Shown in pieces: positions 4,608-21,894 of a stretch of DNA of 64,000 bases. The stretch lies in contig JAJZQX010000012.1 of assembly GCA_021806645.1 (NCBI GenBank), positions 73,764-137,763 of the forward strand, written 5' to 3'. Source of the stretch: Myxococcales bacterium (GTDB lineage Bacteria; Myxococcota; Myxococcia; Myxococcales; Anaeromyxobacteraceae). Position numbers and translations under genes: made by a program. Each line of letters starts with the position of its first letter. Positions within the stretch are counted from its first letter, which is position 1. The notes under the pieces were generated by a model. It ran no database searches. It had not been told where the DNA came from and saw nothing but the letters and a program-made list of their open reading frames with translations.

Positions 4608-4624
4608 CGCGCCGGGAGAACACC

Positions 4625-5359
4625 ATGAACCACGGCCCCCAGATCCTCCGCTTCACCTTCCGGCAGCGCGCCGAGCACTTCATCACCATGGCGGTGTTCG
4701 TGCTGCTCTGCATGACCGGCCTGCCGCAGAAGTTCTTCGAGGCCGGCTGGGCCCACGCCCTGGTGGAGGGCTTCGGCGGCATCGACCGCACCCGCTGGGT
4801 CCACCGCTTCTGCGGCGTGGTGCTGGCGCTCGCGACCGTCATCCACTTCGCCGGCGCCGCCGTCACCATCTGGTCCAGGAAGGCCGGCTTCACCATGGCC
4901 CCGGTCCGGAAGGACTTCGAGGACGCCGTCCTGCAGCTCAAGTTCTACCTGGGGATGACCAACCGGCAGCCGAGGTACGACCGGTACGACTACAAGCAGA
5001 AGTTCGAGTACTGGGGGCTGGTGTTCGGAAACGTCATCATGGTGGTGACCGGGTTCGTCCTCTTCTTCCCGGTGGCCTTCGCGCAGCTGGTGCCCGGCCA
5101 GATCATCCCGGCCGCCAAGGTGGCGCACTCCAACGAGGGACTGATGGCCTTCTTCGTCATCACCATCTGGCACATCTTCAACGCTCACCTCAATCCGGAC
5201 GTCTTCCCCTTCGATGCCTCGATGTTCACGGGTAAGATCAGCCGGGAGCGGATGCTTCACGAGCATCCACTGGAGCTGGCCCGCATCGAGGGCCGTCCGG
5301 TGGAGGAGCTCGCCGGGCATGCCGCGCCCGACCATGGCCCCGAGCACCCTCACGGTTGA
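4625..5359 (+). CDS. Membrane b-type cytochrome of the FdnI/HydC (Ni/Fe-hydrogenase b-subunit) type
   Basis: ATG at 4625 within ORF 3515..5359. It has 4-5 hydrophobic helices with conserved His (AEHFITM, WVHRF, VIHFAG, KVAHSNEG, IWHIFNAH). It starts 18 nt after the 9-haem gene. Confidence 0.8.
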   Translation: MNHGPQILRFTFRQRAEHFITMAVFVLLCMTGLPQKFFEAGWAHALVEGFGGIDRTRWVHRFCGVVLALATVIHFAGAAVTIWSRKAGFTMAPVRKDFEDAVLQLKFYLGMTNRQPRYDRYDYKQKFEYWGLVFGNVIMVVTGFVLFFPVAFAQLVPGQIIPAAKVAHSNEGLMAFFVITIWHIFNAHLNPDVFPFDASMFTGKISRERMLHEHPLELARIEGRPVEELAGHAAPDHGPEHPHG

Positions 5360-6314
5360 CCTCCTCGCGCAGGGCATCTTCCACTCGCTGGTGGCGGCGC
5401 TCTTCATCGAGGCGCTGGTGAGGAGCTGGGCGGTCGAGCACCCGGCCCAGCGGGTGGCCCTGCGGCTGGTGGCGCTGGCCTACCCGCTGCTCGTCTTCCC
5501 GGCGCTGGTGTTGCTCTTCCCGCAGCGCGGGGACGAGGCCTTCCGCGACGCGGCGCTCCTGTCGGGCCGGCGCTGGAGAGACGTGCCCTTCCTCGGTCTC
5601 GACCTCTACCTGGTCTTCGTCATCTGCCTGGCGGCGGCGGGGCTGCTGCTGCTGCTCATCGACGTGGTGGCGCTGCTCCGGACGCTGCGCCGGGGGCGGC
5701 CGCCGCCGGGCCGGCTCGACGCGCCCCGCACCGCCGCGCTCGACGCGGCGCTGGCGCCCCTCTCCCCCGGCGGCGACCGACCGCCGGTGGTCTGCCTCGA
5801 CCGCGACCTTCCCAGCCTCTTCTGCGCCGGGGTGCGCCGTCCGACCATCTACGTCACCCGCGGCGCCATCGACCTGCTCGACGCCGGCGAGCTGCGCGCC
5901 GCGCTGGCCCACGAGCTGGCCCACCTCGGCCGGCGCGACCCGGCGCGGAGCTGGGTGATGCTCGGGCTCCGCTGCGCCATGTGGTGGAACCCCACTTTCC
6001 AGGTGCTGGCGCGGGCGCTGGCGCGTGACGCCGAGCGGCTGGCCGACGAGCGGGGCGTCGGGCTCGGCGGCGACCGGCTGGCGCTGGCCAGCGCGCTGCT
6101 CAAGCTCCACCGGGCCACCGGTGGCCTGGACGCGCGGCGCACGCTCCTCTTCGGCGGCGCGCTGGCGGGGACGCTGCGGCGGGCCCGCTCCCAAGACCTC
6201 GAGGGGCGCGTCCGGGCGCTCATCGAGCCGGCGCCGGCGTTGCTGCCGCTGCCCTGGCTGCGGCTCGGCCTGGCGGCCACCTCGATGACCGGGCTGCTCT
6301 ACTTCGTCACATGA
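5334..6314 (+). CDS. M48/M56-family (BlaR1-like) membrane zinc metallopeptidase
   Basis: HELAH (HEXXH) motif in AALAHELAHLGRRD, preceded by several TM helices. The start could be 5319 or 5334. It overlaps the end of the cytochrome b gene. Confidence 0.65.
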   Translation: MAPSTLTVDLLAQGIFHSLVAALFIEALVRSWAVEHPAQRVALRLVALAYPLLVFPALVLLFPQRGDEAFRDAALLSGRRWRDVPFLGLDLYLVFVICLAAAGLLLLLIDVVALLRTLRRGRPPPGRLDAPRTAALDAALAPLSPGGDRPPVVCLDRDLPSLFCAGVRRPTIYVTRGAIDLLDAGELRAALAHELAHLGRRDPARSWVMLGLRCAMWWNPTFQVLARALARDAERLADERGVGLGGDRLALASALLKLHRATGGLDARRTLLFGGALAGTLRRARSQDLEGRVRALIEPAPALLPLPWLRLGLAATSMTGLLYFVT

Positions 6315-6886
6315 CCGCCTCCGCCCGGACCACGCGGCGCACCGGCCCGGAGCTGCTCCGGTTGCTGGCCGCCCTAGGCTGGGTGGTGGCGATCACGGCC
6401 CTGATCCTGGCCGGGCTGGGGGCGCTGCCCGGCTGGATCGCCGGCGAGCCTCGGGAGGTGCGGACCGTCGCCAGCGTCGAGATCGCCGAGCGGAACCTCG
6501 GCGCCAGGCTGGCGCTGCCCTCCTACTTCCCGGCCCACCTCGGCTGGCCCCCGGCGCGCATCCGCGTGGCGGGAGGCAAGGGTGGGGCGGTCGAGCTGAC
6601 CTTCCGGGACCGGGCCGGCGGCGGCGACCAGCTGCAGCTCCTCCAGGCCACCACCACTGGCGAGCCGATCCCAACGGTGTTCGAGCCGCCGGGGAGCGAG
6701 CTCACCTCGTCGCCGGCCACGGTGGGCGGACGGCCGGCCCGGCTCACCCGGCGGACCATCGGCGGCGAGGTCTGGCAGCAGCTCGCCTGGGAGCGCGACG
6801 GCTGCCGGATGGTGCTGCGCACGCGCGGGGACGTGGACGAGCTGTTCCGGATCGCCCACAGCGCCCACCGGCGGGGGACACCGTGA
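6311..6886 (+). CDS. Hypothetical membrane-anchored (single TM) protein
   Basis: ATGA overlap with the upstream peptidase gene. TM segment LLRLLAALGWVVAITALILAGLGAL. The amino acid composition looks coding. I recognise no domain. Confidence 0.5.
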   Translation: MTASARTTRRTGPELLRLLAALGWVVAITALILAGLGALPGWIAGEPREVRTVASVEIAERNLGARLALPSYFPAHLGWPPARIRVAGGKGGAVELTFRDRAGGGDQLQLLQATTTGEPIPTVFEPPGSELTSSPATVGGRPARLTRRTIGGEVWQQLAWERDGCRMVLRTRGDVDELFRIAHSAHRRGTP

Positions 6887-8754
6887 TCCGGCCGGCCATC
6901 GGCAGGGCCAAGTCGAGCGTGCGGGGCGGCACGGGGCTGCGGCGGCGCGTCTACCTGCTGATGGCCATCGGCATCTTCTTCCCGCTGCTGGTGCTCTCGA
7001 TCGTCTCCTGGTACTGGCTCCGCGACCTCGACGCGCGGCTGCAAGGGTCCCGGGTGCAAGCGGCCGGGACGGTGGCGGCCCACTTCGACGAGGAGCTGAC
7101 CGGCGACCTGGAGCTGCTGCAGCGGCTCGCCGCCCGGATCGGCTCGCGCCTCGAGGCGGCCGATCCGGCGCTGGCGCGGCAAGCGGTCCGCGAGGCCTTC
7201 GGCCACTTCCGCCACCGCGAGGCGGTCTTCCTCCTCGACGCCGGCGGGCGCGTGGTGGCCGAGGAGCCGTACGGCCGGGTCTCGGCCACGCCGCAGGGCG
7301 CCATCCCGCTGGTCGAGGAGGTGCTGGCCAGCGGCCTGCCGCGCCTCACCGGCCTGCAGGTGGGCGGCCGGGGCCCGCTGGTCCACGAGCTGGTGCCGGT
7401 GCGCGACCTGGCCGGCGAGGTGGTCGGTGTGGCCGGGGGGACGTTCGACCCGACCCGGCGCGACTTCCAGAAGATGCTGCGCCACCTGCGCCAGGGGCGG
7501 ACCGGCCGGGCCGAGCTGCTCGACGCGACCGGCCTGGTGGTCGCCTCGTCGGAGCCGCGGCGCGCCGGCGTGAAGAGCGAGTGCAGCGTCAACCTGGCGC
7601 GGCTGGTGGCGGCCAAGGCGAGCCTCTCGTCCCGCTGTGACGACTGCCACGCGGAGCACGGCGTGCGGGCGCGCCCCGGCGAGCTGCTGACCTTCTGGCC
7701 GCTGGCCAGCACCTCGTGGGGGCTGGTGGTGCGCCAGGACGCCAGGGAGGCCTCGCCGACCGGGGGGGCGCTGCCGTGGTTCGCCGTGGCCGTAATGGTG
7801 CTGGCGCAGGTGGCCCTCTCCGGCATCTTCGCCTGGGGGGCGGCGCGCAGCGTGACCCAGCCGGTGGCGGTGCTCACCGCCGAGGCCGAGCGGATCGCCT
7901 CCGGCCAGCTCGACTGGCCCATCCCCGAGCTGGGGCGGGACGAGGTCGGCCAGCTCGGACAGGCGCTCGACCGGATGCGCCAGTCGCTCCAGGCGCTGGT
8001 GGCCCGGGTGGAGCGGGCCAACCTGGAGCTGGAGGGGCGCGTCGAGGAGCGGACCCGCGACCTCAACCAGGCCAACGCGGCGCTCCGGGAGCGCGAGCAG
8101 GCGCGCGGCGAGCTGCTGCGCAAGGTGATCACGGCGCAGGAGGACGAGCGCAAGCGGGTGGCGCGCGAGCTCCACGACGAGACCACCCAGGCGCTGGCGG
8201 CGCTGCTGATGCGGGTGGACCAGGCGGCCGAGGCGGTCCGCGCCGGGAGGCCCCCGGCGCTCGACGAGCTGCGCACGCTGGCCAACCGGGCCCTGGCCGA
8301 CGTCCACCGGCTCATCCTCGACCTGCGCCCGTCGGTGCTCGACGACCTGGGGCTGGCCTCCGCGGTGCAGTGGTACGCCGACCGGGCGCTGGGGTCGCGG
8401 GGCGTGGCGGTGCGCTGCGAGTGCGTCGAGCTGCCCGAGCTGACGCCCGAGCTGGAGACCGCGCTCTTCCGCATCTGCCAGGAGGCGCTCAGCAACGTGG
8501 CCCGCCACGCCCAGGCCTCGCACGTGCTGATCGAGGTGCGCGTCGAGGGGCCGCTGCTCTGCATCGACGTCGAGGACGACGGCGTGGGCTTCGACCAGGC
8601 CGCGGTGGCGCGCCGCGAGGGGCGGCCGCACTGGGGGCTGCTCGGCATCCAGGAGCGGGCCGGCCTGCTGGGCGGGCACGCCCGCTTCGACTCCACCCCC
8701 GGCGCCGGCACGCGCGTCGAGGTCCGCATCCCGCTCTCCGAGGAGCACCCATGA
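6883..8754 (+). CDS. Sensor histidine kinase (NarX/DesK-type HisKA_3 plus HATPase_c, with HAMP) whose periplasmic domain carries a CXXCH motif
   Basis: Two TM segments flank a ~250-aa periplasmic domain containing RCDDCHAEH (nt 7636-7650). Then HAMP, the H-box ELHDETTQAL, and N/G boxes (EALSNVARHA, DDGVGF, GLLGIQERA). Confidence 0.85.
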   Translation: MIRPAIGRAKSSVRGGTGLRRRVYLLMAIGIFFPLLVLSIVSWYWLRDLDARLQGSRVQAAGTVAAHFDEELTGDLELLQRLAARIGSRLEAADPALARQAVREAFGHFRHREAVFLLDAGGRVVAEEPYGRVSATPQGAIPLVEEVLASGLPRLTGLQVGGRGPLVHELVPVRDLAGEVVGVAGGTFDPTRRDFQKMLRHLRQGRTGRAELLDATGLVVASSEPRRAGVKSECSVNLARLVAAKASLSSRCDDCHAEHGVRARPGELLTFWPLASTSWGLVVRQDAREASPTGGALPWFAVAVMVLAQVALSGIFAWGAARSVTQPVAVLTAEAERIASGQLDWPIPELGRDEVGQLGQALDRMRQSLQALVARVERANLELEGRVEERTRDLNQANAALREREQARGELLRKVITAQEDERKRVARELHDETTQALAALLMRVDQAAEAVRAGRPPALDELRTLANRALADVHRLILDLRPSVLDDLGLASAVQWYADRALGSRGVAVRCECVELPELTPELETALFRICQEALSNVARHAQASHVLIEVRVEGPLLCIDVEDDGVGFDQAAVARREGRPHWGLLGIQERAGLLGGHARFDSTPGAGTRVEVRIPLSEEHP

Positions 8755-9404: not shown

Positions 9405-9795
9405 CCACCCGAAGTGAAGCCCGTCCCTGCAACGGGGGCTGGTGACGCGTGACCGAACGTGGTCGAGTCAGGTCCGCAGATTGAACCAATGCGCTGGGCC
9501 GCAGCGGAATTGACGCGGATCAAGTTCAGGCGATGGGGCGGACGCGCAAAATTTTCGGGTGCGGCTCTGCGTCGGAGTGGGAGAAGGTATGTCGCCACGG
9601 GCGAGTGTGCCGAAACTGGATCTGTGTCAAATCGCACCAGCTTGGGGCATTGGCCCCACTGCGCCGGATTCCGGCGGCCTCGAGCCGGGCCTGGGTGGCC
9701 GGTCAGTACCCCGGATCGACGACGCCATTTGGCCAGAAAGTCCTTTGGCTTCCATGGCGTCGGCGGGGCGCGCCCCTTGCACTTGGACATCGGTC

Positions 9796-12700
9796 ATGAC
9801 GCTCAGGACCTCCGTCTGCGCACTAGTTGCGTCTCTCTTCGCCTTTGCCCCGTCGGCCGCCCAGGCCGCCTGGGTGGCCTCGCTGTCGGTCGGCGCCGGT
9901 GACTGCGCCACGGTGCCGGGGACCTGCTCCGGCATCGCGCCGGGCAGCGCGGTGACGGTGACCTGCACCGCCAGTCAAGGCAGCTCGATGTATACCGCCA
10001 CGCTGGTCTCGCTCGACGTGACGGCCTCGGCCGGCGCGCTCGGTGCGCCGGTGTTCACCAACGGCAACCCGGCCTCGACCGTCGTGACCTGGACCGCGCC
10101 CGCCTCGGGCAGCGCCACCATCACCTGCCGCGGCGTGGACAAGGTCGCCAACACCACCACCGCCACGGTGAGCGCCCAGGTCGCCGCGGCCGCGGCCGGC
10201 AAGCCTGTCATCTCCGCCTTCACCCGGCCCACCGGGCCGGTCGTCGAGGGCGCGGCGGTTCCACTGTCGGTCACTGCGACCGATCCGGCCGGCGGCACGC
10301 TCAGCTACGCCTGGACCGCCACCGGCGGCACCTTCGACGCGACCAGCGCCGCCGCCGTGACCTGGACCGCCCCGGCCACCGAGGGCTCGGTGGACGTGAC
10401 CGTGGCGGTTTCCAGCGCCACCGGGACCACCACCCGCGTCGAGAACTTCCGGGTGGTCATCTCGGTCTTCCAGGGCGATCTCGCCACCCGGCCGCGGGCG
10501 CCGAACCGCCTGGCGGCGGCCGGTGGCGGCGACATCGCCGTGTCCGACGCCGAGGGGAAGCTCTACCTGTTCACGCGCCGCGGCGAGCTGCGCGGCGCCC
10601 CGGCCGTGGACGCGCCCATCGCGTCGGTGGCCGCCGGCGACGGCACGGTCTTCGCCGCCACCCGCACCGGCGTCATCCTCACCATCGACGCCACCACCGG
10701 CCGCGTGCTGCGCCGCCTGCGGCTCGGCACGGCGTCCGGCCCGATCGCCATGGCCTGGGACTCGGCCCATGGCCTGCTCTGGGTGGTCGAGCAGGGGATG
10801 CCCGGCGCGCGCGCCCTGCTCTCCAATGGCACCGTGGCGCGCGAGATCCGGCAGACGCCGGCCGGCCTGCCGCTCGACTTCGCCGCCGACGTGGCGGTGG
10901 ACGGCGCCGGCAACGTCTGGATCGCCCAGGCGTCCATGGACACCGGTCCGATGGTCCACGCCTTCGACGCCGCCACCGGCGCCTGGGTCCGCTCCATCGT
11001 CAGCAGCGGGAGCGGCCCCGGCCAGGTGCGGCGGGTGGGCGGCCTCGGCTTCGACGCGGCCGGACGGCTCTTCGTCTCCGACGCCTTCAACGGCAACGTC
11101 AAGGTGATGAGCCCGGACGGCACGCCGCTCGGCACGCTCGGCTCCTTCGGCGGCGGCCCCGGCCAGCTCCGCCAGCCGGCCGGCCTCGCGCCCATGGCCA
11201 ACGGTGACGTGCTGGTGGCCAACTTCGACGTGGGCCGGCTCGATCGCTTCGGCGCCGGCCTGCCGCTCCCCACCTGCACGGTGAAGGGGCTGCTCGACAG
11301 CGACTGCGACGGCATGTCCGACGAGTGGGAGCTGGCCCACGGCCTCGACCCGCTCGACCCGTCCGACGCCATGCTCGACGCCGACGGCGACGGCCTCGCC
11401 AACCTCGAGGAGTACGCCCACGGCACCGACCCGGGGAAGGCCGACACCGACGGTGACGGTCTCGCCGACGGTGCCGAGGTCCTGGCCGGCACCAATCCGC
11501 TCAACCCGAGCGACGGCGTGGCCGGCTTGATGGCGGCCGGCCCGGCCGGCGCGGTCCGGCCCGGCGAGATCCACCTCTCCGCCACCGTGTCCGGCCCCGG
11601 CGCCTGCACCCTGGGCTGGAAGCAGGTGGGCGGGCCCCCGGTCGTGCTCCGCGCCACCACCTCGCTGACGCCGTCGTTCATCGCGCGGGCCGCCGCCGTC
11701 TACACGTTCGAGGGGCAGGCCCGGTGCGGCAGCTCGGTGAGCACCCCGTCCCGGGTCGCGATCACCGTCCTCAACGTGGCCCCACGGGCCGCCGCCGACC
11801 GGATGGCGGTGGTGGCCGCGGGCGACCGGCTCGAGCTCTCGGCCGCCGCCTCCAGCGACGCCAACGGCGACGCGCTCCGCTTCGCCTGGGAGGTGGACCA
11901 GTCGCCGGTGGGCGCCAGGGCGGCCATCGCGCCGCGCTCCGCCGAGCTCGGGCTCGGCTACCACCCGTTCCGCGCGGTGGTTCGCGACGCCGCCGGCGCC
12001 GCCGACGCCGTCGAGGTGCCGGTCATGGTGGTGGACGAGCGGCTGGTGGCCCCGACCGCCATCGTGGACGCCTCGGTGCTGGCCGGCGAGGTCGGCCAGC
12101 CGGTGCAGCTGAGCGCGGCCGCCAGCATTGGCCCGGCCATCCGCTGGGAGCAGGAGAGCGGCCCGGCCGCCGCGCTCTCGGATCCCGCCGGCGCCATGCC
12201 CACCTTCCTGCCCCCGGTCGCCGGCCGCTACGTCTTCGCCGCCTACGCGGTGGACGGGCTGGTCTGGTCCGCCCCGGCCCGCGTCGAGGTCTACGTGGCC
12301 GGCGGCGGCACCGCCCTGCCGCAGGCCGCGGTCGCCCCGCTCGCCGCCACCGTCCCCGTCAACACCGCCATCGTGCTCGACGGCTCCGGCAGCCTGGCCG
12401 GCGCCGGTGGCGCCATCACCTGGGCCTGGAAGCAGGTGGCCGGCCCGGCCGCCGCCATCGTGGACGAGGACCGGCCGCTGGCCACCGCGGTCGCCTTCGT
12501 GCCCGGCTGGTACCAGTTCGAGCTGACGGTCAACGAGGCGGGGGTCTCCTCGCTGCCGGTCCGGATCGGCTTCGAGGCCCGTGTCGAGGGCGCGCCCATC
12601 CCGGTGGCCAGGGCGGCCGGCCCGGCCGGCGCCGTCACCGGCGAGCTGGTCCGGCTCGACGGCCGCGCCTCCACCGGCGCCCGCCGCTACCACTGGACGC

Positions 12701-12861
12701 AGGTGGCCGGCCCGTGGGTCGCACTGAAGGCGAGCCAGCAGGCGCCCACCTTCGTGCCCCTGGCCGAGGGGAGCTATCGCTTCGAACTGGAGGTGGACGA
12801 CGGCACGGTGCGCAGCCGCCCGGCCTCGGTCACCGTCCTCGTCAACGGGAAGGGGAACTAG
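9796..12861 (+). CDS. Secreted multidomain protein: Ig-like domains, an NHL-repeat beta-propeller, thrombospondin type-3 (Ca-binding) repeats and four PKD-like domains
   Basis: Signal peptide MTLRTSVCALVASLFAFAPSAAQA. NHL-like blades (VWIAQAS.., RLFVSDAFNGNVKVMSPDGT, GDVLVANFDVGRLDRF). TSP3 repeats (DSDCDGMSDEWE, DADGDGLANLEE, DTDGDGLADGAE). Repeated motifs such as LDGSGS...ITWAWKQVAGPAA. Confidence 0.8.
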   Translation: MTLRTSVCALVASLFAFAPSAAQAAWVASLSVGAGDCATVPGTCSGIAPGSAVTVTCTASQGSSMYTATLVSLDVTASAGALGAPVFTNGNPASTVVTWTAPASGSATITCRGVDKVANTTTATVSAQVAAAAAGKPVISAFTRPTGPVVEGAAVPLSVTATDPAGGTLSYAWTATGGTFDATSAAAVTWTAPATEGSVDVTVAVSSATGTTTRVENFRVVISVFQGDLATRPRAPNRLAAAGGGDIAVSDAEGKLYLFTRRGELRGAPAVDAPIASVAAGDGTVFAATRTGVILTIDATTGRVLRRLRLGTASGPIAMAWDSAHGLLWVVEQGMPGARALLSNGTVAREIRQTPAGLPLDFAADVAVDGAGNVWIAQASMDTGPMVHAFDAATGAWVRSIVSSGSGPGQVRRVGGLGFDAAGRLFVSDAFNGNVKVMSPDGTPLGTLGSFGGGPGQLRQPAGLAPMANGDVLVANFDVGRLDRFGAGLPLPTCTVKGLLDSDCDGMSDEWELAHGLDPLDPSDAMLDADGDGLANLEEYAHGTDPGKADTDGDGLADGAEVLAGTNPLNPSDGVAGLMAAGPAGAVRPGEIHLSATVSGPGACTLGWKQVGGPPVVLRATTSLTPSFIARAAAVYTFEGQARCGSSVSTPSRVAITVLNVAPRAAADRMAVVAAGDRLELSAAASSDANGDALRFAWEVDQSPVGARAAIAPRSAELGLGYHPFRAVVRDAAGAADAVEVPVMVVDERLVAPTAIVDASVLAGEVGQPVQLSAAASIGPAIRWEQESGPAAALSDPAGAMPTFLPPVAGRYVFAAYAVDGLVWSAPARVEVYVAGGGTALPQAAVAPLAATVPVNTAIVLDGSGSLAGAGGAITWAWKQVAGPAAAIVDEDRPLATAVAFVPGWYQFELTVNEAGVSSLPVRIGFEARVEGAPIPVARAAGPAGAVTGELVRLDGRASTGARRYHWTQVAGPWVALKASQQAPTFVPLAEGSYRFELEVDDGTVRSRPASVTVLVNGKGN

Positions 12862-12863
12862 CG

Positions 12864-13976
12864 ATGCGTACCCGCTGGCTCGGAATCCTCGCGGTCCTCT
12901 CCACCGTCGTCCCGGTGGCGGCGCTGGGCGTGGACGCCCCGCACGACGGCTCGGCCACCGTCGGCACCTGCGAGAACTGCCACATGATCCACAACGCGCT
13001 GGGCGGCACGCTGATCAACGCGCCGGACAACAACACCGCCTGCTCGTCGTGCCACAACCCCTTGTCCACCACCCCCAGCGGGGCCCGGCTCGGCCTCCCG
13101 TGGCTCACCGAGGACCAGGCGTTCCCGGGCAAGAGCGGCCAGCAGCACCGCTGGGACGCGCTGGCCGATTCGCCGGCGTTCGGCGCGGCGCAGCCCACCG
13201 ACTCCGGGATGCTGAAGCGGATCAAGGACGGCCGGATCCAGTGCGCCGCCTGCCACGACCCGCACGCCGACGTGAAGGCGTTCGACCCGACCGCGCTGCA
13301 CACCTCGATCGCGCCCGGCGTCGCCACGGCCGTGACCGGTGGCACCACCACCATGACCATGACGCTGACGGCGCCCGCCGCCGCCGCCGTGACCAGGGGG
13401 TACCGGGTCCAGGTGGAAGGCATCTCGGGCGCCCAGTTCCGGCTCGCTATCAGCCACAACGCCAAGACCACCGACGGCGCGCCGATCTGGTGGGTCAACA
13501 ACGGGACCAGCTGGGTTCAAGGTGCGCTCGGAACCGGCACGCAGCTCTGGTCCACCGGCGCGGCCATCGCGCTCGACGACGGGACCAGCGTGCAGGTGAC
13601 CTTCACCGGCACCGCCGCCGTCGGCCAGTTCTGGGACTTCTACGTCTCCTACGCCCACCTGCGGGCCAGCAACGTGGCCGACGCCATGTGCCTGCAGTGC
13701 CACGCCTCGCGCAACCAGACCCACGTCACGGTCGAGGGGCCGGGGAACGGCGTGACCATCTTCAGCCACCCGGTCGGCGAGGCGCTCAACGCCAACGGCA
13801 AGGGGTACGACCGGGCCGCCGCCAACGTGCTCGACGCCAACGGCGCGCTCCAGGCCACCGGCGACGGCAACCCCACCAACGATCTCACGCTGGACGGCGG
13901 CACCACGGTCCGCTGCACCACCTGCCACAACGTCCACAACGCCGACTCCAACTCACTCACCACCGATGCTCGGTAG
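12864..13976 (+). CDS. Pentahaem c-type cytochrome with an OmcS-like N-terminus and an inserted non-haem domain
   Basis: Signal peptide MRTRWLGILAVLSTVVPVAALG. Five CXXCH motifs: CENCH, CSSCH, CAACH, CLQCH, CTTCH. First motif is HDGSATVGTCENCHMIHNALGGTLIN. About 140 aa between haem motifs 3 and 4 contain no Cys. Confidence 0.85.
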   Translation: MRTRWLGILAVLSTVVPVAALGVDAPHDGSATVGTCENCHMIHNALGGTLINAPDNNTACSSCHNPLSTTPSGARLGLPWLTEDQAFPGKSGQQHRWDALADSPAFGAAQPTDSGMLKRIKDGRIQCAACHDPHADVKAFDPTALHTSIAPGVATAVTGGTTTMTMTLTAPAAAAVTRGYRVQVEGISGAQFRLAISHNAKTTDGAPIWWVNNGTSWVQGALGTGTQLWSTGAAIALDDGTSVQVTFTGTAAVGQFWDFYVSYAHLRASNVADAMCLQCHASRNQTHVTVEGPGNGVTIFSHPVGEALNANGKGYDRAAANVLDANGALQATGDGNPTNDLTLDGGTTVRCTTCHNVHNADSNSLTTDAR

Positions 13977-14040
13977 CCCCGGGGCGCACGTGAAGACCAC
14001 TCAGCGCAGCTCCCGCATGGTGAACGACATGGCCGCAAGG

Positions 14041-17000
14041 ATGAACTCCGTGAAGACCCTGGCTCGCGCCGTTGCCGCGGTCGCCGTCGCGTTGCTCGCG
14101 GTGCAGGCGGGGCCGGCGGGGGCGGCCGGCACAGCCGGCAAGAGCTACAACATCTCCTGCGACACCGGCACGACCGCCAACGTGTCGCTCTACAACATCA
14201 CCACGGGCACCCAGTTCAAGGTGCGCTGCAAGATCATCGACCAGGCGACTGGTGCGGGGATTACCGGACTCGTCAGCGGTGACATCACCATCAGGCAGAT
14301 CACGGACGTCACCACCAACACCGCGCTCACCAGCGGCACCGACTACACCGCCGGCAACCTCGTGGAGGTTGGAAGTGGCGTTTACGATTTCTTGCTGACC
14401 ATCAGTTCGGGCGTTGCCACGGGTGACATCCTTGAGATCCAGATGCGCGAGGACGGTGGCAATGAGGTCGACACGGAGCGCCTCTTCGTCACCCAGTATG
14501 TACGCGTTGCAACTGCTGGCGTCGCTGGAAACGCCCGCTACATCGAAGTCCAGCCGACGACCAACGCTGACATCAACACGGCGGCGGGGACCTACACAGT
14601 GCGGGTTCGCTTCATCGATGCGCTGGGCAACTACTTCAATCCCGGCACCTTGACCTGGAGCATCAATCGATGGCGCGACAGCACCGGCGCCACCATCACC
14701 ACCGGCACCCCTTCGGCTGCAGCCTACGACACCACCAACAACTGGTACCTGCTCAGCATCCCCTACAGCACGGCACTGACCAACGGCGACCGACAGTACA
14801 TCAACATCGGCGCCAGGATCGGTAACTACCGGTACCTGGCCGGTTTCGGTCTGACCGCGGTCACCGCCCAGACCAATACGCCGCTCGCCGTGCCAACCTT
14901 CACGACGCCTGGCCTATTTGCTCCGGCCAACACCACCACGGTCGGCAACGGCACCGATCCGGCCGGTGGCACGGTCGGCCCCGGGGGCGCGGCCACCATG
15001 GTGGACGCCTTCACGCTGCAGACCAGCGCCGGCACCGACACGATCACGGCGGCCAGCGTGACGCTCTCGACCGTGAGCGGCGTCGGCCTGGTCGAGATCA
15101 CCAACGACGCCGGCACGACCGTCTACGGTTCGACCAGCAACCCCGCGGCCACGCCGGTCGCCGTTTCGCTCACCACCAGCATCTCCGCCACCACCACGCT
15201 GACGCAGTACAGGGTCCGCGTCACGCCGCTGGCGCATGCCGCCATGCCGGCGGTGCCGGGCGGGACCTACGCGGTGACGGCCACGGTGACCGGGCTCACC
15301 TCGACCAACGGCAAGACCTACGCCGACAGCGGCAGCGGCACGCTCACCATCGACAACCTCTCCCCGGGCGACGTGACCGGCCTCTCGGCCACGCCCGGCA
15401 ATACGCAGCTGGTGGTCAACTGGACCAACCCGGCCACCGACTACGCGCGGACCATGGTCCTGTATCGCGCCACCACCGCCATCAGCGACGTGCCCGGCGA
15501 GGGAGCGACCTACACCGCCCCGGGCACGCTCGGAGCGAGCACCATCGCCTACGTGGGCGGCACGGCCGGCGCGGCCGGCACCACCACCATCACCGGCCTG
15601 ACCAACGGCACGCTCTACAACTTGAAGGTCTTCGTCCAGGATGCCTATGGCAACTGGTCCACGCCGGGCGCCACCACCTCGGGCACGCCGACCGCCCCCG
15701 CCAACACCACCACGGTCGGCAACGGCACCGATCCGGCCGGTGGCACGGTCGGCCCCGGGGGCGCGGCCACCATGGTGGACGCGTTCACGCTGCAGACCAG
15801 CGCCGGCACCGACGCGATCACGGCGGCCAGCGTGACGCTCTCCACCGTGAGCGGCGTCGGCCTCGTCGAGATCACCAACGACGCCGGCACGACCGTCTAC
15901 GGTTCGACCAGCAACCCGGCGGCCACGCCGGTCGCCGTGACGCTCACCACCAACATCTCCGCCACCACCACGCTGACGCAGTACAGGGTCCGCGTCACAC
16001 CCCTGTCGCACGCCGCCATGCCGGCTGTGCCGGGCGGGACGTACGCGGTGACGGCCACGGTGACGGGGCTCACCTCGACCAACGGCAAGACCTACAGCGA
16101 CACGGGAAGCGGCACGCTCACCATCGACAACCTCTCCCCGGGCGACGTGACCGGCCTCTCGGCCACGCCCGGCAATACGCAGCTGGTGGTCAACTGGACC
16201 AACCCGGCCACCGACTACGCGCGGACCATGGTCCTGTATCGCGCCACCACCGCAATCAGCGACGTGCCCGGCGAGGGGGCGACCTACACCGCCCCGGGCA
16301 CGCTCGGAGCGAGCACCATCGCCTACGTGGGCGGCACGGCCGGCGCGGCCGGCACCACCACCATCACCGGCCTGACCAACGGCACCCTCTACAACGTGAA
16401 GGTCTTCGTCCAGGATGCCTATGGCAACTGGTCCACGCCGGGCGCCACCACCTCGGGCACGCCCGCCGTCCCGGTCATCAGCCTGGCCGTCGGCAACGGC
16501 ACCAACCCGGCCAACACGGCGCTGCTCTGCCCGTCGCCGACCGCGCCGACCGGCCCCACCATGCTCGACGCCTTCACGCTGCAGGCCCTGGTGGCCGACG
16601 ACGTGGTGACCCGCATCACGGTCCAGCTCGCCCCGGCGGGCGCCTGGATCAACGTGGCCACCGTGGAAATCACAGACGCCGCGGGCGGCACCACGGTCTA
16701 CGGCAGCGCCATCCCCGGCGGCGACCAGGTCAACGTCTACGTCACCGGCATCGCCCCGACCGTGGCCGCCGGCGCGGTCAGCTACAACGTCCGGATCACC
16801 CCCAAGACCCACGCGGCCATGCCGGCCCCCAACACCGGCCAGCAGTACGCCACCACCGGCACCGTGGTCTCGGTCGCCTCCAACAACCCGCGCACCTACG
16901 GCGACGCCTCCAGCGCCACCGTCACCATCGACAACCTGGCGCCGTCAGAGGTGGTCTGGTCCGGGGTCACCACCGGCGCCACCAACATCCAGCTCAACTG

Positions 17001-20000
17001 GGTCACGGCCACCAACGTGGTGGTGCTGCGCAAGCAGGGCGGGCCGGTCACCGACTCGCCGGTCGAGGGGACCACCTACACCGCCGGCGCCACCATCGGC
17101 GCCAGCACCGTGGCCTGCGCCGGAACCATGGCGCTCTGCAACTCGACCGGCCTGACCGCCGGCACCGCCTACTACTTCAAGGTCTTCACCGCCGACGCCT
17201 GCGTCAACTACTCGCTCGGCGGCCCGGTCGGTCCGCTCTTCGCGGGCGGCCTCAACGAGGGCAGCGCCACCGCGAGCACGCTGCTGCCGGTGGTGGGGAT
17301 CATCAACCCGAAGAACCCGGCCACGGTGACCAGCTCCGGTGCCGGCTTCCGGGTCCAGGTCCGCGCCTTCAGCCGGATGAACGCGGGCGTCGCCCAGCCG
17401 TTCGCCGCCGGTGCCGTCCGGCTCAAGGCGGCCACCCCGGCCCAGCCCTTCGTCGCCACCTGCGACGCGGCCAACTACCCGATCGCGCTGGCGCTCAACG
17501 CCAACTACCCGAACAGCACGGTAGCGGCCACCGACAACCACGGCGTCTACGAGGCCACGGTCACGGTCGCCAAGGGGGCGTACACGTTGCGTGCCTGCGC
17601 CACCAACGCCAGCGGCACCGTCCTGTCGGGTCCGGTCGGCATCACCGTCAACGACGGCTCGGCCGGCTCGCCCAGGGGCGACGGCAACCTGCTGGTCCGC
17701 GACAACGGCGCGCAGCTCTGCAACGACTGCCACGCCATCGCCACCCACGCCTCGGAGACGGTCGGCAACAAGTACGGCTCCTGGTACGCGGCCTGCCGCG
17801 ACTGCCACACGCCGCACAGCACCACCAACGTCGAGCTGATCCGCAAGCAGATCACGCCGCCCGGCTACCGCGGCCAGCAGCCGCCCAGGGACGTGGTCTT
17901 CTACGACAGGTCCACCGGCTTCGCCGCGACCGCGTACGCGAATTCCGGCGGCACCGGCGTCTGCCAGGTCTGCCACACCGCCACCACCTACTACCGGAGC
18001 GACGGAACGCTGGCCGGCACCCACAACCCCAACCAGGCCTGCACCGCCTGCCATGCCCACGAAAAGGGGCTCAAGGCCTCGTGCACCACGTGCCACGGCG
18101 ACAAGACCGGGACCTACGCGGCCATCTCCGGGGCCGACACCAACGCCAACGCCGCGCCGCCGACAGCGGCCGACAAGGTGACCACCACCGGCGTGAAGGT
18201 GGGCGCGCACCAGGCCCACGTCAACGGCAACGGCACCGTCGCCACCTACCGGACCAACCCGATCGGCTGCGCCGACTGCCACCCGGTCCCGAACTCGCAC
18301 AACGGCACCACCGACGCGGCCTGGAGCGTGCTGGCCACCAACACCATCGTCAACGGGACGAGCCTCGCCGTCGCCCCGACGCCGGCCGCCGGGCTTGGCG
18401 CCTACAACGCCACCTGGGAGGCGACGCCGACCTGCACCAACGCCTGCCACGGCGCCAACCTCCCCTCCAACGCCGTGAAGCCGGCGCCGAGTTGGACCGC
18501 GGCGGGTGGCCTGACCTGTGCCTCCTGCCACGGCGCTCCGCCTCCGCTCTCGGCCACCGCCAACCAGAACCACCCGCAGAACACCACCTGCGCCACCTGC
18601 CACGGGGCCGGGTACGTCAACGGCGGGCCGCTGGCGGCTGCCGCCAAGTCCACGCACGTCAACGGCACGCTCGACCGGATCACCGCCGGCTGCACCTCCT
18701 GCCATGGTGAGCTGGGCGCGCCGGGCGTGACGCTGACGGCGAACACGGTGAAGGCGGCGCCGGGCGCCTCGGGGAGCGGCACCAACTCCTTCGACACCAC
18801 CGGCCTCGCCACCGGCAACGCCATCGGCGCGCACAAGGCCCACCTGGCCGGTTCCACGGGCACGCCGCGCTGGCGCTCGGCCGTCATCGCCTGCAACGAG
18901 TGCCACCTGTTGCCGCCGAGCGACACCGACATGGCCCACGCCACCGGCGCCGGCACGGGTGGGGCGCGCGCCACCCTGACCTGGACCGGCGGCATCGCGC
19001 AGAGCACGGCCTTCGAGACCAAGACCGCCTCGTACGCGCAGCCGACCTGCACCAACGTCTATTGCCACAACCCCAAGAGCACCGACACGGCGGCGACGAC
19101 CAAGACGCCGGCCTGGAACGGGGCCACCACCCTGGCGCAGTGCGGTTCCTGCCACGGGCTGCCCCCCACCACCGGGACCGCCCACCCGACCGGCGTGACG
19201 GAGTGCGCCAGTTGCCACCCGGGCTACAGCGCCACCATGCCGACCAGCACCAGCACCATCGCGGCGGTGAACACGCTGGCCCACATCAACGGCCAGCTCG
19301 ACGGCGGCGGCGACTGCACCGGCTGCCACGCCAGCGCGCAGGGGCCCCGGCGCCCCATCGTTCCAGAGTTCGCGCTGGCCTGGTCGCACAAGCGCTCCGC
19401 CGGCGGCGCGGTCACCAAGTGGGACTGCGTGGTCTGCCACATGGAAGGGGACCCGACGACCGGGAACACCACGGCGGTCCACAAGGACGGCTTCGTCAAC
19501 CTGAGAGACCCGGACACCGGGGCGAACATCAAGGGCGTGACCTTTGCCGGGACGCCGGGCAGCTACACCGCCACGGCCACCGACGCGACCTTCACCACGT
19601 TCAGCCGCAACCTGGGCAGCGCCACGCTGGAGCCGGCGGTCCAGGCCATCATGATCAACCAGTGCCTCAAGTGCCACGACGCCAACGGCGCGGCCAGCAC
19701 GCTGGCGCGGGTGCCGACCACCGGGACGGCGGAGAAGCCCTTCGGCACCACCATCGCCGGCGCGGCCTACACCGGAGCCGGCGTGACCGCCAACGGAGTG
19801 ACCGGCGGTGTCGCCGACGTCAACGCCGCCTTCGCGACGACCAACTCCTCGTACCACCCGGTGACCGGGAAGCAGAACAACTGGTACGCGAAGGACGTTC
19901 GCATGGTTGCGCCCTGGAACATGGGGGTGACCACCAGGGCCGGGACCGTCAACCTGACCACGTGGGGCCCACTACTCTCCTGCTGGGACTGCCACTCCGA

Positions 20001-20571
20001 CCCCGCCGACACCGGCGTCATCACCAGGACGGTCACGGCCCACGGCGCGGCACAGACGCTTCGCGGCACTCCGACGTATAGCGGAACGCTCACGTCGCGA
20101 CCGGCGAGTTCCACGACCTACCCGGTCACCCGGCCGGCAACGGCGGTGACGCTCTGCATCGTCTGCCACGATCGCTACGACACGTGCGGTGGGGCGGGCA
20201 CCAACAACTGCTCCAGCGCAACGCACGGCGCGGGGTCGGCGGAGTCCAGCAACCTCAACAGCGGCATGACGGGGACCATGCAGTTCGCCTGCAACTGGTG
20301 TCACAGCAGCGGAAGCCTCACGGCCGTGGTGCGGCCGATTCGAGGGCAGGACGTGCACGGCGTGAACACCGTGGCGACCGGCGGCTCGGCCAAGTCGGGC
20401 AGGTGGGCGACGGCCAACCCGAAGCCGTATGCATTCATCCGCAACACCTCCCTCCTGGGTGACCACTCACCCCGCAGTATCCTCGGGACGACGTACTCGC
20501 CCGGATGCGACATGGTGACCAGTCCCTGCAGCCAGGGCTTCAAGACCTACACGGTCGGCGGCACCTACTAG
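14041..20571 (+). CDS. Giant (~2176 aa) secreted multihaem cytochrome. The N-terminal ~1200 aa are Ig/FN3-like repeats; the C-terminal ~1000 aa carry 18 CXXCH motifs plus one CX3CH and one CX4CH.
   Basis: Signal peptide MNSVKTLARAVAAVAVALLAVQAGPAGA (starts at 14017 or 14029 are also possible). Three units each combine a beta-sandwich with an FN3-like domain. Two modules resemble the Geobacter CxxxxCH...CXXCH domain (PTCTNACHG...LTCASCHGAPP and PTCTNVYCHN...AQCGSCHGLPP). Confidence 0.85.
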   Translation: MNSVKTLARAVAAVAVALLAVQAGPAGAAGTAGKSYNISCDTGTTANVSLYNITTGTQFKVRCKIIDQATGAGITGLVSGDITIRQITDVTTNTALTSGTDYTAGNLVEVGSGVYDFLLTISSGVATGDILEIQMREDGGNEVDTERLFVTQYVRVATAGVAGNARYIEVQPTTNADINTAAGTYTVRVRFIDALGNYFNPGTLTWSINRWRDSTGATITTGTPSAAAYDTTNNWYLLSIPYSTALTNGDRQYINIGARIGNYRYLAGFGLTAVTAQTNTPLAVPTFTTPGLFAPANTTTVGNGTDPAGGTVGPGGAATMVDAFTLQTSAGTDTITAASVTLSTVSGVGLVEITNDAGTTVYGSTSNPAATPVAVSLTTSISATTTLTQYRVRVTPLAHAAMPAVPGGTYAVTATVTGLTSTNGKTYADSGSGTLTIDNLSPGDVTGLSATPGNTQLVVNWTNPATDYARTMVLYRATTAISDVPGEGATYTAPGTLGASTIAYVGGTAGAAGTTTITGLTNGTLYNLKVFVQDAYGNWSTPGATTSGTPTAPANTTTVGNGTDPAGGTVGPGGAATMVDAFTLQTSAGTDAITAASVTLSTVSGVGLVEITNDAGTTVYGSTSNPAATPVAVTLTTNISATTTLTQYRVRVTPLSHAAMPAVPGGTYAVTATVTGLTSTNGKTYSDTGSGTLTIDNLSPGDVTGLSATPGNTQLVVNWTNPATDYARTMVLYRATTAISDVPGEGATYTAPGTLGASTIAYVGGTAGAAGTTTITGLTNGTLYNVKVFVQDAYGNWSTPGATTSGTPAVPVISLAVGNGTNPANTALLCPSPTAPTGPTMLDAFTLQALVADDVVTRITVQLAPAGAWINVATVEITDAAGGTTVYGSAIPGGDQVNVYVTGIAPTVAAGAVSYNVRITPKTHAAMPAPNTGQQYATTGTVVSVASNNPRTYGDASSATVTIDNLAPSEVVWSGVTTGATNIQLNWVTATNVVVLRKQGGPVTDSPVEGTTYTAGATIGASTVACAGTMALCNSTGLTAGTAYYFKVFTADACVNYSLGGPVGPLFAGGLNEGSATASTLLPVVGIINPKNPATVTSSGAGFRVQVRAFSRMNAGVAQPFAAGAVRLKAATPAQPFVATCDAANYPIALALNANYPNSTVAATDNHGVYEATVTVAKGAYTLRACATNASGTVLSGPVGITVNDGSAGSPRGDGNLLVRDNGAQLCNDCHAIATHASETVGNKYGSWYAACRDCHTPHSTTNVELIRKQITPPGYRGQQPPRDVVFYDRSTGFAATAYANSGGTGVCQVCHTATTYYRSDGTLAGTHNPNQACTACHAHEKGLKASCTTCHGDKTGTYAAISGADTNANAAPPTAADKVTTTGVKVGAHQAHVNGNGTVATYRTNPIGCADCHPVPNSHNGTTDAAWSVLATNTIVNGTSLAVAPTPAAGLGAYNATWEATPTCTNACHGANLPSNAVKPAPSWTAAGGLTCASCHGAPPPLSATANQNHPQNTTCATCHGAGYVNGGPLAAAAKSTHVNGTLDRITAGCTSCHGELGAPGVTLTANTVKAAPGASGSGTNSFDTTGLATGNAIGAHKAHLAGSTGTPRWRSAVIACNECHLLPPSDTDMAHATGAGTGGARATLTWTGGIAQSTAFETKTASYAQPTCTNVYCHNPKSTDTAATTKTPAWNGATTLAQCGSCHGLPPTTGTAHPTGVTECASCHPGYSATMPTSTSTIAAVNTLAHINGQLDGGGDCTGCHASAQGPRRPIVPEFALAWSHKRSAGGAVTKWDCVVCHMEGDPTTGNTTAVHKDGFVNLRDPDTGANIKGVTFAGTPGSYTATATDATFTTFSRNLGSATLEPAVQAIMINQCLKCHDANGAASTLARVPTTGTAEKPFGTTIAGAAYTGAGVTANGVTGGVADVNAAFATTNSSYHPVTGKQNNWYAKDVRMVAPWNMGVTTRAGTVNLTTWGPLLSCWDCHSDPADTGVITRTVTAHGAAQTLRGTPTYSGTLTSRPASSTTYPVTRPATAVTLCIVCHDRYDTCGGAGTNNCSSATHGAGSAESSNLNSGMTGTMQFACNWCHSSGSLTAVVRPIRGQDVHGVNTVATGGSAKSGRWATANPKPYAFIRNTSLLGDHSPRSILGTTYSPGCDMVTSPCSQGFKTYTVGGTY
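14926..16473 (+). repeat. Near-identical tandem duplication (2 x 774 bp, 2 x 258 aa) inside the giant cytochrome gene. A third, diverged copy follows at about 16474-17230.
   Basis: Copy 1 (14926-15699) and copy 2 (15700-16473) both begin gccaacaccaccacggtcggcaacggcaccgatccggccggtggc. By eye, about 7 aa differ out of 258. Confidence 0.85.
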
Positions 20572-20592: not shown

Positions 20593-21894
20593 ATGAACGC
20601 CCCCGCGTCGCACCGGGCTCCAATGCCACGGTGCGGCGCGCCCGCTCCAATGGCCGACCCGTCCATGCCGACGCCCGAAGCACCAGCAGCGCCCGCGCCG
20701 CGCGTTCGCCCCCCACCGAGCCTGGGGCGCCGGGTCTTCAGCGTGGTTTCCTCGCCGCGGCTGGCCATCGCGCTGCTCATCGTCGTGCTGGCCTGCTGCG
20801 TGGTGGGCGTCACAGTCTTCACGCCGGAGCCGGCTTGGCGGCTCATCTTCAACACGCTCTGGTTCAACGGCCTGCTGGTGCTGCTGGCGCTCAGCTCGGG
20901 CGTCACCTTCCTGGCCCGCACCTGGGGCCGGAAGCTCACGCTGGTCTCCGTGGGTATGATCCTGTTCCACGTGAGCTTCATGAGCCTGCTGGGCGGCGTG
21001 GTCTTCAACAGCTTGTTCCACTTCAAGGGCGTGCTGCGGCTCACGGAAGGCGAGATCCTGCCCAACGGCGATCCCGCCAGCTACGACACCGTCGATGCTG
21101 GGCGCTTCTTCGACTTCACCCGCCTCCGCGGCGAGACCACCCTGGTCAAGATGCACCGCGGCTACAAGGTGGACGGGCAGGACAAGCGGGCCGCCTACGA
21201 GATCGCCGTCGGCGAGGGGTCGTCGAAGACGACGGGAATCATCTACATGACGCAGAACCTGGACTACCGCGGCGTGCGGTACCTGGTCTCCAAGGAGGGG
21301 TACTCGATCGGCGTCGTCCTCCACGACAAGCAGGGACGCGAGCTGTACGCGGCCATGGTCCCGCTGCAGAGCCTGCAGCGGGGCGAGAACGCCCACCTCT
21401 ACACCACCGGCTCCGCGCTGGCGCCAGGCGCCTTTCCGTTCCCGCCGCCGCCGGACTCCGCCGCGCTCCTGCTCCAGGTGGGGTACGTGCCCGATCAGCG
21501 GAAGGAGCGGGCCGGGCAGGTCGAGTTCTTCACCTGGCCGGTGAGCCAGGCGGTCGCTGGCCACGACGGTGCCAGGGGCGCGGGGCACGCGTCCGGCCAG
21601 GCCGCGTCGATCGGGGGCGGCAAGGACACGGAGCCTGCCGCCTCGGGCAAGGTGGCCGTCGGCGGCACCTTCGACGCCGGCGACTACAAGCTCGAGGCGA
21701 GAGAGGTGCGGTACTGGGTCGGCATGACGGTACGACGCGACCCCGGTCTGACCGTCATCCTCTCCAGCCTCTGGGCGGGGCTGGCAGGCATGACCATGAC
21801 CTTCATCGGACGGATCGTGCAAGACTCGAAGCGAGGCAAGCGCGAGGCGAGCAGCTCTGAACCGGGCGCGACAGCGCCGAAGGGGGTCCCATGA
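20593..21894 (+). CDS. resB: System II cytochrome c biogenesis protein ResB/Ccs1 (CcsB)
   Basis: VFSVVSSPRLAIALLIVVLACCVVG...WFNGLLVLLALS...LFHFKGVLRLTEGE.. is a typical ResB N-terminus, and there is a C-terminal TM segment. The stop overlaps the ccsA ATG (ATGA). The start could be any of several Met codons between 20593 and 20665. Confidence 0.8.
   Translation: MNAPASHRAPMPRCGAPAPMADPSMPTPEAPAAPAPRVRPPPSLGRRVFSVVSSPRLAIALLIVVLACCVVGVTVFTPEPAWRLIFNTLWFNGLLVLLALSSGVTFLARTWGRKLTLVSVGMILFHVSFMSLLGGVVFNSLFHFKGVLRLTEGEILPNGDPASYDTVDAGRFFDFTRLRGETTLVKMHRGYKVDGQDKRAAYEIAVGEGSSKTTGIIYMTQNLDYRGVRYLVSKEGYSIGVVLHDKQGRELYAAMVPLQSLQRGENAHLYTTGSALAPGAFPFPPPPDSAALLLQVGYVPDQRKERAGQVEFFTWPVSQAVAGHDGARGAGHASGQAASIGGGKDTEPAASGKVAVGGTFDAGDYKLEAREVRYWVGMTVRRDPGLTVILSSLWAGLAGMTMTFIGRIVQDSKRGKREASSSEPGATAPKGVP

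Follow-up and report, generated by a model that had tools for sequence, protein, structure and literature searches.

The stretch of DNA analysed here, called the window throughout, comprises 64,000 nucleotides of a Myxococcales bacterium of the Anaeromyxobacteraceae (GenBank assembly GCA_021806645.1, contig JAJZQX010000012.1, positions 73,764 to 137,763 of the forward strand). On its plus strand, at 12864..13976, lies a gene, here named T5, whose translation is a pentahaem c-type cytochrome of 370 residues. It is flanked by genes for a large propeller protein and a giant multihaem cytochrome, and it resembles OmcS, a nanowire subunit of Geobacter sulfurreducens. An earlier sequence-only reading of this DNA had singled out T5 for its five haem motifs and for a Cys-free insert of about 140 residues between haems 3 and 4. 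Both are confirmed by the translation, which holds five CxxCH motifs and a Cys-free stretch of 144 residues from H131 to C276. The gene has the following features:

12864..12929, plus strand: Sec-type signal peptide, residues 1-22 (MRTRWLGILAVLSTVVPVAALG), which starts with basic MRTR, continues with a hydrophobic core and ends in AALG
12936..13016, plus strand: OmcS-like N-terminal segment, residues 25-51 (APHDGSATVGTCENCHMIHNALGGTLI), with the invariant His27, haem motif 1 and His43, delimited by alignments to OmcS
12969..12983, plus strand: haem motif 1, CENCH, C36-H40, invariant in the family
12990..12992, plus strand: codon of His43, the counterpart of OmcS His16 in the alignment to OmcS
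13041..13055, plus strand: haem motif 2, CSSCH, C60-H64, from the translation and the family alignment
13242..13256, plus strand: haem motif 3, CAACH, C127-H131, followed by the invariant His134 and aligned with OmcS CSSCHDPH
13305..13667, plus strand: all-beta domain, residues 148-268, from an AlphaFold2 model of the domain alone
13689..13703, plus strand: haem motif 4, CLQCH, C276-H280, preceded by a Y-A-H-L-R 'xLR' motif; this xLR...CxxCH resembles PFLR...CLGCH of OmcE
13914..13928, plus strand: haem motif 5, CTTCH, C351-H355, followed by the invariant His358 and the conserved tail NADSNSLT.D.R, and aligned with the haem 5 motif CLSCHRAH of OmcS

The gene is evidently real and conserved. 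Searching 5.8 billion proteins gave 218 homologues, almost all of them 350-390 residues long and covered over the full length, and a profile search of 1.84 billion representatives returned 1182 clusters (50% identity) at E<=1e-3 and 166 at E<=1e-30. Genome matches are almost all to Anaeromyxobacter and other Anaeromyxobacteraceae, often with two to three copies per genome. Existing annotation offers generic labels only: T5 matches Pfam Paired_CXXCH_1 (PF09699; E=1.2e-11, 44.5 bits against a cut-off of 20.6) and TIGR01905 (36.8 bits against 25.2), and an NCBIfam scan gave only generic multihaem matches, all sub-threshold. Near the signal peptidase site, the family consensus reads A-x-A followed by x-D-A-P-H-D, and T5 is probably cleaved before V23-D-A-P-H-D, with VDAPHDG rather than HDG as the mature N-terminus.

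The OmcS N-terminus on which the sequence-only reading relied, FHSGGVAECEGCHTMHNSLGGAVMN, is exact (residues 1-25 of 6ef8_A). Its description of the match as residue for residue holds in part: T5 ATVGTCENCHMIHNALGGTLINAP and OmcS 4-27 share 11 of 24 residues in an ungapped alignment, but nine residues separate the N-terminal His from the first Cys in T5 versus seven in OmcS, which puts the first residues out of step. Among OmcS relatives, only the pattern H..G..C..CH..H (more fully FH.GG..C..CH..H) and a nearby GG are conserved; the 'NSLGG' of the CxxCHxxHN-LGG segment is not. Direct searches of the PDB return little: OmcS is the top match of the N-terminal 73 residues (E=0.022, domain E only 1.9), and full-length T5 has no OmcS match at E<=10 by phmmer. 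As a control for chance, all CxxCH-anchored 26-mers in the multihaem open reading frames of the window and of 39 related loci (1017 unique) were scored with BLOSUM62 against OmcS 2-27, leaving out the C, C and H of the motif. The T5 segment ranks first (score 47, background -9.8 +/- 12.8), its orthologues rank next and the best site outside the family scores 29. This top rank indicates that the N-terminal likeness to OmcS is real and goes beyond the haem motif.

The resemblance extends well past the N-terminus noticed at first. The OmcS family was sampled as 120 fragments, each of at most 280 residues, and compared as N- and C-terminal fragment alignments and as a chimeric reference. With hhalign, the T5 family matches the OmcS N-terminal fragments with 98.4% probability (E=7.8e-15, 132 columns), and at 98.0% over 104 columns once signal peptides are removed. 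The C-terminal halves match at 92.7%, with haem 4 on haem 4, FSHPVG on lrHPaG and haem 5 on haem 5. At full length there is a single colinear alignment of 264 columns (98.2%) that pairs haems 1-5 with haems 1-5 and ends before OmcS haem 6. Residues outside the motifs also align, including A-P-H-D-G with A-F-H-S-G (A-x-H-x-G), a conserved Trp and HPxG. In single-sequence controls against the OmcS profile, T5 reached 82 over 107 columns, and the other cytochromes of the window reached 26-65 over 15-47 columns, as short single-motif matches only. Of the pairwise and profile alignments proposed at the outset as a check, it is the profile-profile ones that carry the similarity through the whole protein, with E-values inflated by haem motifs.

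Comparisons with OmcE are less orderly. The T5 family hidden Markov model (HMM) gives E=0.97 against the OmcS sequence, and its best PDB match is OmcE (7tfs_A, E=3.6e-4), as several pieces, some of them out of order, with the SHPV...CxxCHxxH and PFLR...CxxCH motifs. Against 84 OmcE relatives the family reaches 94% (score 60), partly out of register, and the comparison with the OmcE homologue of the window alone gives 24% over only 17 columns. As a yardstick, the OmcS family itself matches the 84 OmcE relatives at 98.2% (E=3.6e-14, 176 colinear columns), although haem motifs inflate such scores; OmcS and OmcE have a common haem arrangement and have been described as lacking sequence similarity (PMC9473688). 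Our reading is that T5 belongs to a broad OmcS/OmcE group, closest to OmcS, without being a strict member of either family. OmcS-family proteins are defined by six CxxCH, including a C-terminal QRxLCNKCH haem, and T5 has five; OmcE-family proteins are defined by four CxxCH, a TKH[DN]L N-terminus, a PFLR...CxxCHK end and a length of about 230-280 residues, a description from which the 370-residue T5 departs.

Ten histidines are invariant in all 117 full-length relatives: the five motif histidines and H27, H95, H134, H302 and H358. These are exactly enough for five bis-His haems, and all five T5 haems are probably ligated in this way. The one-to-one mapping of ligands is tentative, since OmcS relatives have seven conserved non-motif histidines for six haems and counting does not separate ligation in cis from ligation in trans. 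An eleventh position, His43, is variable. In OmcS, its counterpart His16, three residues past the first CxxCH, closes haem 5 of the neighbouring subunit (PMC7096707), and in OmcE a haem ligand His likewise comes from the neighbouring subunit (PMC9473688). The earlier suggestion that T5 carries a His donated to the next protomer is borne out to the extent that the residue is present, but it is His in only 79 of the 117 relatives (Tyr in 26, Phe in 5, Thr in 4 and others in 3; replacements include Val, Ala and Ser), compared with 71 of 71 OmcS-family N-termini. Among genome loci that cover the position, fused modules included, 26 of 32 have His.

The stretch between haems 3 and 4 contains a domain that AlphaFold2, given the domain alone, models confidently as all-beta (predicted local distance difference test (pLDDT) score 94.7, predicted template modelling score 0.88). 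Comparison of this model with PDB structures gave no significant fold match (best E=0.31, to the beta domains of FlgL/FlgK, template modelling scores 0.41-0.45). A test of whether the insert varies among orthologs had been proposed. It is present in 117 of 117 family members, at 98-128 residues and 44% mean identity, next to 49% in the N-terminal haem part and 64% in the C-terminal part. It is missing from stand-alone relatives of 237-293 residues and from most fused ones, where CxxCHD.H...PF.. runs straight to ..MR/LR...CxxCH, the same direct passage between haems 3 and 4 as in OmcE. By these comparisons it is a lineage-specific but conserved domain, not a variable region. In the full-length, haem-free T5 model, the haem regions have pLDDT <50, and a Foldseek search of that model against the PDB, without significant match, reflects the beta domain only and thus carries no information on fold similarity to OmcS or OmcE. 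Two five-haem relatives (P0344 and P0363) carry a different inserted domain (...W..N....VRITSG......R.I.SN...T...), in one case in the loop between haems 3 and 4 and in the other immediately ahead of haem 5, which suggests that surface loops of the module accept varied domains.

T5 is part of a row of genes on one strand, given here from the NHL gene onwards:

9559..12861, plus strand: NHL propeller/bacterial TSP3/PKD protein, 1100 residues (Pfam), whose stop codon lies 2 nt before the T5 ATG
12864..13976, plus strand: T5
13966..20571, plus strand: giant Fn3/Ig-repeat cytochrome, 2201 residues (Pfam), with 18 CxxCH from about residue 1230
20593..22715, plus strand: ResB-like and CcsA genes, system II cytochrome c maturation (Pfam PF05140, PF01578)
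22729..24075, plus strand: PD40 (TolB-like) beta-propeller protein (Pfam PF07676), the end of the gene row

A scan of 9000-14600 for promoters and terminators gave no signal, including between the NHL, T5 and giant genes. The real start of the giant cytochrome is probably the Met at 14041. An NHL gene lies directly upstream of the T5 homologue in nearly every related locus with upstream sequence (25 of L001-L027, plus L028, L030, L031, L033 and L039), and this arrangement includes loci of Flavobacteriaceae and Phycisphaeraceae. A relative of the giant cytochrome follows the T5 homologue in most loci, and CcsA, with or without ResB, occurs in about half; the ResB and CcsA pair is kept in L006, L008, L017 and L027, and CcsA alone in many others. 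In a metagenome, a short stand-alone relative (P0377) likewise stands between a propeller gene and a gene for a large Ig-repeat protein.

In at least nine loci of other lineages, which include Geobacter, Phycisphaerae and Flavobacteriaceae, a single open reading frame runs from the T5 N-terminal part through the T5 C-terminal part into the giant chain from about residue 1230, with gapless junctions. The module is N-terminal in L028, L032, L034, L035 and L037 and internal in L030, L031, L033 and L039. In L034, for example, T5 residues 265-368 align with residues 143-235, and residues 1230-1587 of the giant cytochrome with residues 235-567. A further fusion, P0302, retains the insert. The start of the giant chain, GDGNLLVR..CxxCH......CxxCHxPH, is conserved in 26 loci, with the His of CxxCHxxH present in 26 of 26. 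We define the five-haem module, which has no established name, by a DAPH[DE] start, five CxxCH, five conserved non-motif histidines and an HxxDSNS tail, followed by GDGxLLxR...CxxCH in cis or in the next gene. T5 and the fused open reading frames of L028, L032, L034, L035 and L037 have all of these.

Other fusions were set aside. Those of NHL proteins to T5 (P0267, P0281, P0316 and P0320) look like read-through or miscalled genes in which a sorting tail (GCG...RRRR) is followed by the T5 signal peptide, and P0250 is a frameshift artefact. In the same four proteins, the propeller part ends in a Cys-rich, hydrophobic, poly-Arg tail (GCG...LLLRRRRR) that resembles a Myxococcota C-terminal sorting signal; the NHL protein of the window has no poly-Arg tail.

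Tandem repetition of the unit was seen in giant cytochromes of 1400-3000 residues (P0349, P0356, P0371, P0378 and P0380; locus L031, 4277-9175), which carry the T5/OmcS-like three-haem N-terminal part 8 to 13 times. The unit is thus one from which very long haem wires of a single chain are built up by repetition. Within the giant protein of the window, residues of about 320-836 (window about 14923-16471, plus strand) form two near-identical tandem units of about 258 residues (PANTTTVGNGTDPAGG...) in the N-terminal Fn3/Ig part, followed by a third, more diverged copy. This protein also carries a Geobacter-type CxxxxCH...CxxCH motif (PF09698, residues 1694-1730), and the ResB/CcsA pair encoded directly after it may be a dedicated haem lyase for this unusual motif.

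The reading that we favour, at roughly even odds (about 0.5), is that T5 is a terminal module from the OmcS/OmcE superfamily, split off from a haem wire that is heteromeric and lies at the cell surface. The T5 haem core can be described as repeats of a di-haem unit, H-[PR]-[VW] ... CxxCHxxH ... xLR ... CxxCH, and the haem 3 region of T5 does align with its haem 5 region. Counted in this way, OmcE would have two units, OmcS three and T5 two and a half, the last being cut after its first haem. The missing half-unit (LLVR...CxxCH; GDGNLLVR...CxxCH) is just what the haem domain of the giant cytochrome starts with, and from this we infer that T5 docks onto that protein. Contact would be made by the conserved C-terminal end (haem 5, His358 and the tail NADSNSLT), and docking would extend the haem chain of the giant cytochrome by five haems into one long electron conduit at the cell surface. 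The upstream NHL/PKD propeller protein may help with assembly or anchoring, haem attachment would be the task of the ResB/CcsA pair, and the beta domain between haems 3 and 4 may be a lineage-specific surface decoration. His43 would be inherited from the OmcS-type unit and, at the free N-terminal end of the chain, may have no haem to bind; such a lack of an obligatory partner fits its loss in a third of the family. Elsewhere the same module shares one polypeptide with a giant multihaem chain, and this speaks for a heteromeric partner and not for self-polymerisation. It is on fusion, gene order and motif logic that the complex of T5 with the giant cytochrome, its surface location, the direction of electron flow and the role of His43 are inferred.

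Two further groups of genes in the window were noted. The row that holds T5 begins with:

3555-4607, plus strand: nine-haem cytochrome (Pfam)
5214-6314, plus strand: BlaR1-type M56 peptidase (Pfam)
6289-8754, plus strand: Cache/HAMP/HisKA_3 sensor histidine kinase (Pfam)

This order of nine-haem cytochrome, peptidase and kinase (3555..8754) is kept in L001, L002, L005, L006 and L027, and its conservation in five related loci suggests that the peptidase and kinase may regulate the operon. On the minus strand, 40692-53698 looks like a complete canonical OmcE-type nanowire cluster, with the make-up described by Petersen et al. 2025:

51995-53698, minus strand: 17-haem cytochrome
50346-51953, minus strand: SurA-like peptidyl-prolyl isomerase (PPIase)
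49291-50319, minus strand: NHL lipoprotein
48285-49046, minus strand: OmcE homologue of 254 residues with four haems and all OmcE-family features (E=6.3e-18 to PDB 7tfs_A, full length)
47733-48170: small helix-turn-helix (transposase-like) open reading frame inside the cluster
45338-47761, minus strand: 808-residue protein without Pfam match, possibly a large beta-barrel
42590-43603, minus strand: second NHL lipoprotein
40692-42590, minus strand: 11-haem cytochrome

Several points weigh against T5 as a terminal module. That genes are neighbours or fused shows that they are linked in function, but a stable 1:1 complex need not follow. Of the relatives with a known structure, both OmcS and OmcE form homopolymers, and OmcS/OmcE-type clusters, including that of the window, also carry NHL propellers. 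At position 43, 68% of the family and most of the genome loci, fused modules among them, still have His, which suggests that it has some role. A 2025 preprint predicts that a nanowire-like haem chain is kept in five-haem OmcE-like proteins (bioRxiv 10.1101/2025.10.22.684050). Finally, hhalign E-values are inflated by haem motifs: non-cognate halves match over 18-30 columns with E of 1e-3 to 1e-6, and in a control the N- and C-terminal parts of OmcS match each other with E=6.6e-10 over 21 columns. A rival reading is a T5 homopolymer, assembled head-to-tail like OmcS with His43 (or His27) completing a haem of the neighbour, in which case the product would be a five-haem nanowire studded with beta domains, the NHL protein an assembly factor and the giant cytochrome its base. 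The remote OmcS homology includes the CxxCHxxH segment, and OmcS haem 5 is ligated by a His of the neighbour (PMC7096707), as happens in OmcE (PMC9473688). NHL propellers accompany the OmcE cluster of the window, a preprint puts five-haem OmcE-like proteins forward as what may be a new family of nanowires (bioRxiv 10.1101/2025.10.22.684050), and relatives carry differing insertions in surface loops, as filament subunits often do. Both solved relatives do polymerise, and His is still the majority state at position 43. We nevertheless regard self-polymerisation as unlikely. His43 is replaced in 38 of 117 members whereas OmcS His16 is invariant, the ten invariant histidines already satisfy five haems, and the sixth haem, which in OmcS is located at the subunit interface, is missing from T5. 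In many lineages a long haem chain follows the module within the same polypeptide, and the T5 gene sits in a tightly packed operon without promoter or terminator signals of its own.

A second rival is convergence, the idea that the likeness to OmcS arose independently among multihaem cytochromes, CxxCHxxH being common, and that T5 is an ordinary periplasmic electron carrier without any special tie to nanowire proteins. Sequence-level searches are indeed not significant (no OmcS match at full length; family profile against OmcS, E=0.97), the Pfam match is to the generic Paired_CXXCH_1 only, and hhalign gives 90-97% even for single-motif matches between unrelated regions. The cognate T5-OmcS alignment is, however, the only long colinear one (104-264 columns), it includes non-motif features (A-x-H-x-G, the conserved Trp and HPxG), T5 ranks 1st of 1017 in the motif-anchored control, and its Fn3, PKD and TSP3 partners are typical of surface proteins; convergence seems quite improbable to us. 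One more idea is that T5 is an adaptor or cap whose spare His43 plugs into the haem left open where an OmcS/OmcE-type filament ends (for example, of the 48285-49046 product) and wires that filament to the giant cytochrome. Members of the His type have eleven conserved histidines for five haems, leaving one spare, and Petersen et al. point out that a haem at the ends of OmcE filaments is left unsatisfied, and they seek a cap protein that has one His more. The window itself encodes an OmcE homologue with its cluster, and Anaeromyxobacter has OmcS homologues (PMC10954620). Yet 27 kb separates the T5 cluster from the OmcE cluster, which is on the other strand, a member with Tyr43 has no spare His, and the basis of the proposal is purely His counting; we think it very improbable. 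The same slim chance attaches to its fullest form, in which T5 would link nanowire and cell by trans-ligation at both ends, His43 capping the haem at the filament end and the first haem of the giant cytochrome completing the C-terminal half-unit, and would thereby join a non-covalent polymer to a covalent 18-haem chain.

The T5 family bears on the question of how cytochrome nanowires begin, terminate and are attached to the cell. To our knowledge, OmcS and OmcE are usually described without recognisable relatives outside their own families. The T5 family, at about 1200 clusters, presents an OmcS-type haem unit in three forms: alone as a five-haem protein, in such a protein with a beta domain besides, and fused once or many times into giants. 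It offers a testable case of one haem-wire unit joined either covalently or between separate polypeptides, and a candidate system, in the cultivable Anaeromyxobacter (A. oryzae, A. terrae, A. oryzisoli), in which to ask whether trans-histidine ligation occurs outside homopolymers. Should T5 prove to belong to the giant cytochrome as one of its subunits and no more, that would come as no surprise, but it would still improve the annotation of a metal reducer that is abundant in soil. The sequence-only reading knew of no five-haem polymerising cytochrome, but in-silico pentahaem relatives are already in the literature: pentahaem sequences have been noted among OmcS/OmcE relatives (PMC11492766), and Petersen et al. 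2025 (bioRxiv 10.1101/2025.10.22.684050) suggest that 'five-haem OmcE-like proteins' may be a family of nanowires. In the literature we found no description of the Anaeromyxobacteraceae pentahaem form with a beta domain, of its constant association with an NHL/PKD protein and a giant Fn3 cytochrome, of the split-versus-fused relation of T5 to giant cytochromes, or of the profile-level link to OmcS.

How does T5 compare with the known systems? With OmcS of G. sulfurreducens (hexahaem nanowire subunit, PDB 6EF8/6NEF) it shares the colinear haem motifs 1-5, the N-terminal A-[FP]-H-x-G ... CxxCHxxH-N segment with its 11 of 24 identities, HPxG after haem 4 and CxxCHxxH at haems 3 and 5. Unlike OmcS, it has five haems and not six, lacking the C-terminal QRxLCNKCH haem; the counterpart of the invariant His16 is not invariant in the T5 family, and the conserved His of OmcS 'SSYHIS' has no match. 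T5 also has a 120-residue beta domain in place of the haem 3-4 linker and is encoded in an operon with a giant cytochrome, and there is no significant pairwise or profile-to-sequence similarity between the two. OmcE of G. sulfurreducens (tetrahaem nanowire subunit, PDB 7TFS) is the top PDB match of the T5 family profile; CxxCH-x-x-H-N-A at haem 1 is common to T5 and the OmcE homologue of the window, and OmcE-type clusters, like that of T5, combine NHL propellers with multihaem cytochromes. The end of T5, in contrast, has no PFLR...CxxCHK haem, and no large beta-barrel gene was recognised beside T5. Stand-alone T5 relatives of 237-293 residues fit, by description only, the five-motif proteins of OmcE length in the preprint (bioRxiv 10.1101/2025.10.22.684050).

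The gene row as a whole recalls the Uet cluster of 'Ca. Tenderia electrophaga' (bioRxiv 10.1101/2022.05.06.490989). Although no porin or PPIase was recognised in the T5 row, where the partner is a 2200-residue Fn3-repeat cytochrome, both have NHL propeller genes, small and large multihaem cytochromes and a system II maturation pair. Long predicted 'nanowire' cytochromes such as OmcG, OmcH and GSU2884 (PMC11492766) provide a further point of comparison. The N-terminal or internal modules within giant cytochromes (for example, in the Geobacter loci L032 and L034) have the same five haem motifs, ten histidines, DAPH[DE] start and HxxDSNS C-terminal tail as T5. They continue covalently into a haem chain and usually have no beta domain, whereas T5 is a separate polypeptide with the domain.

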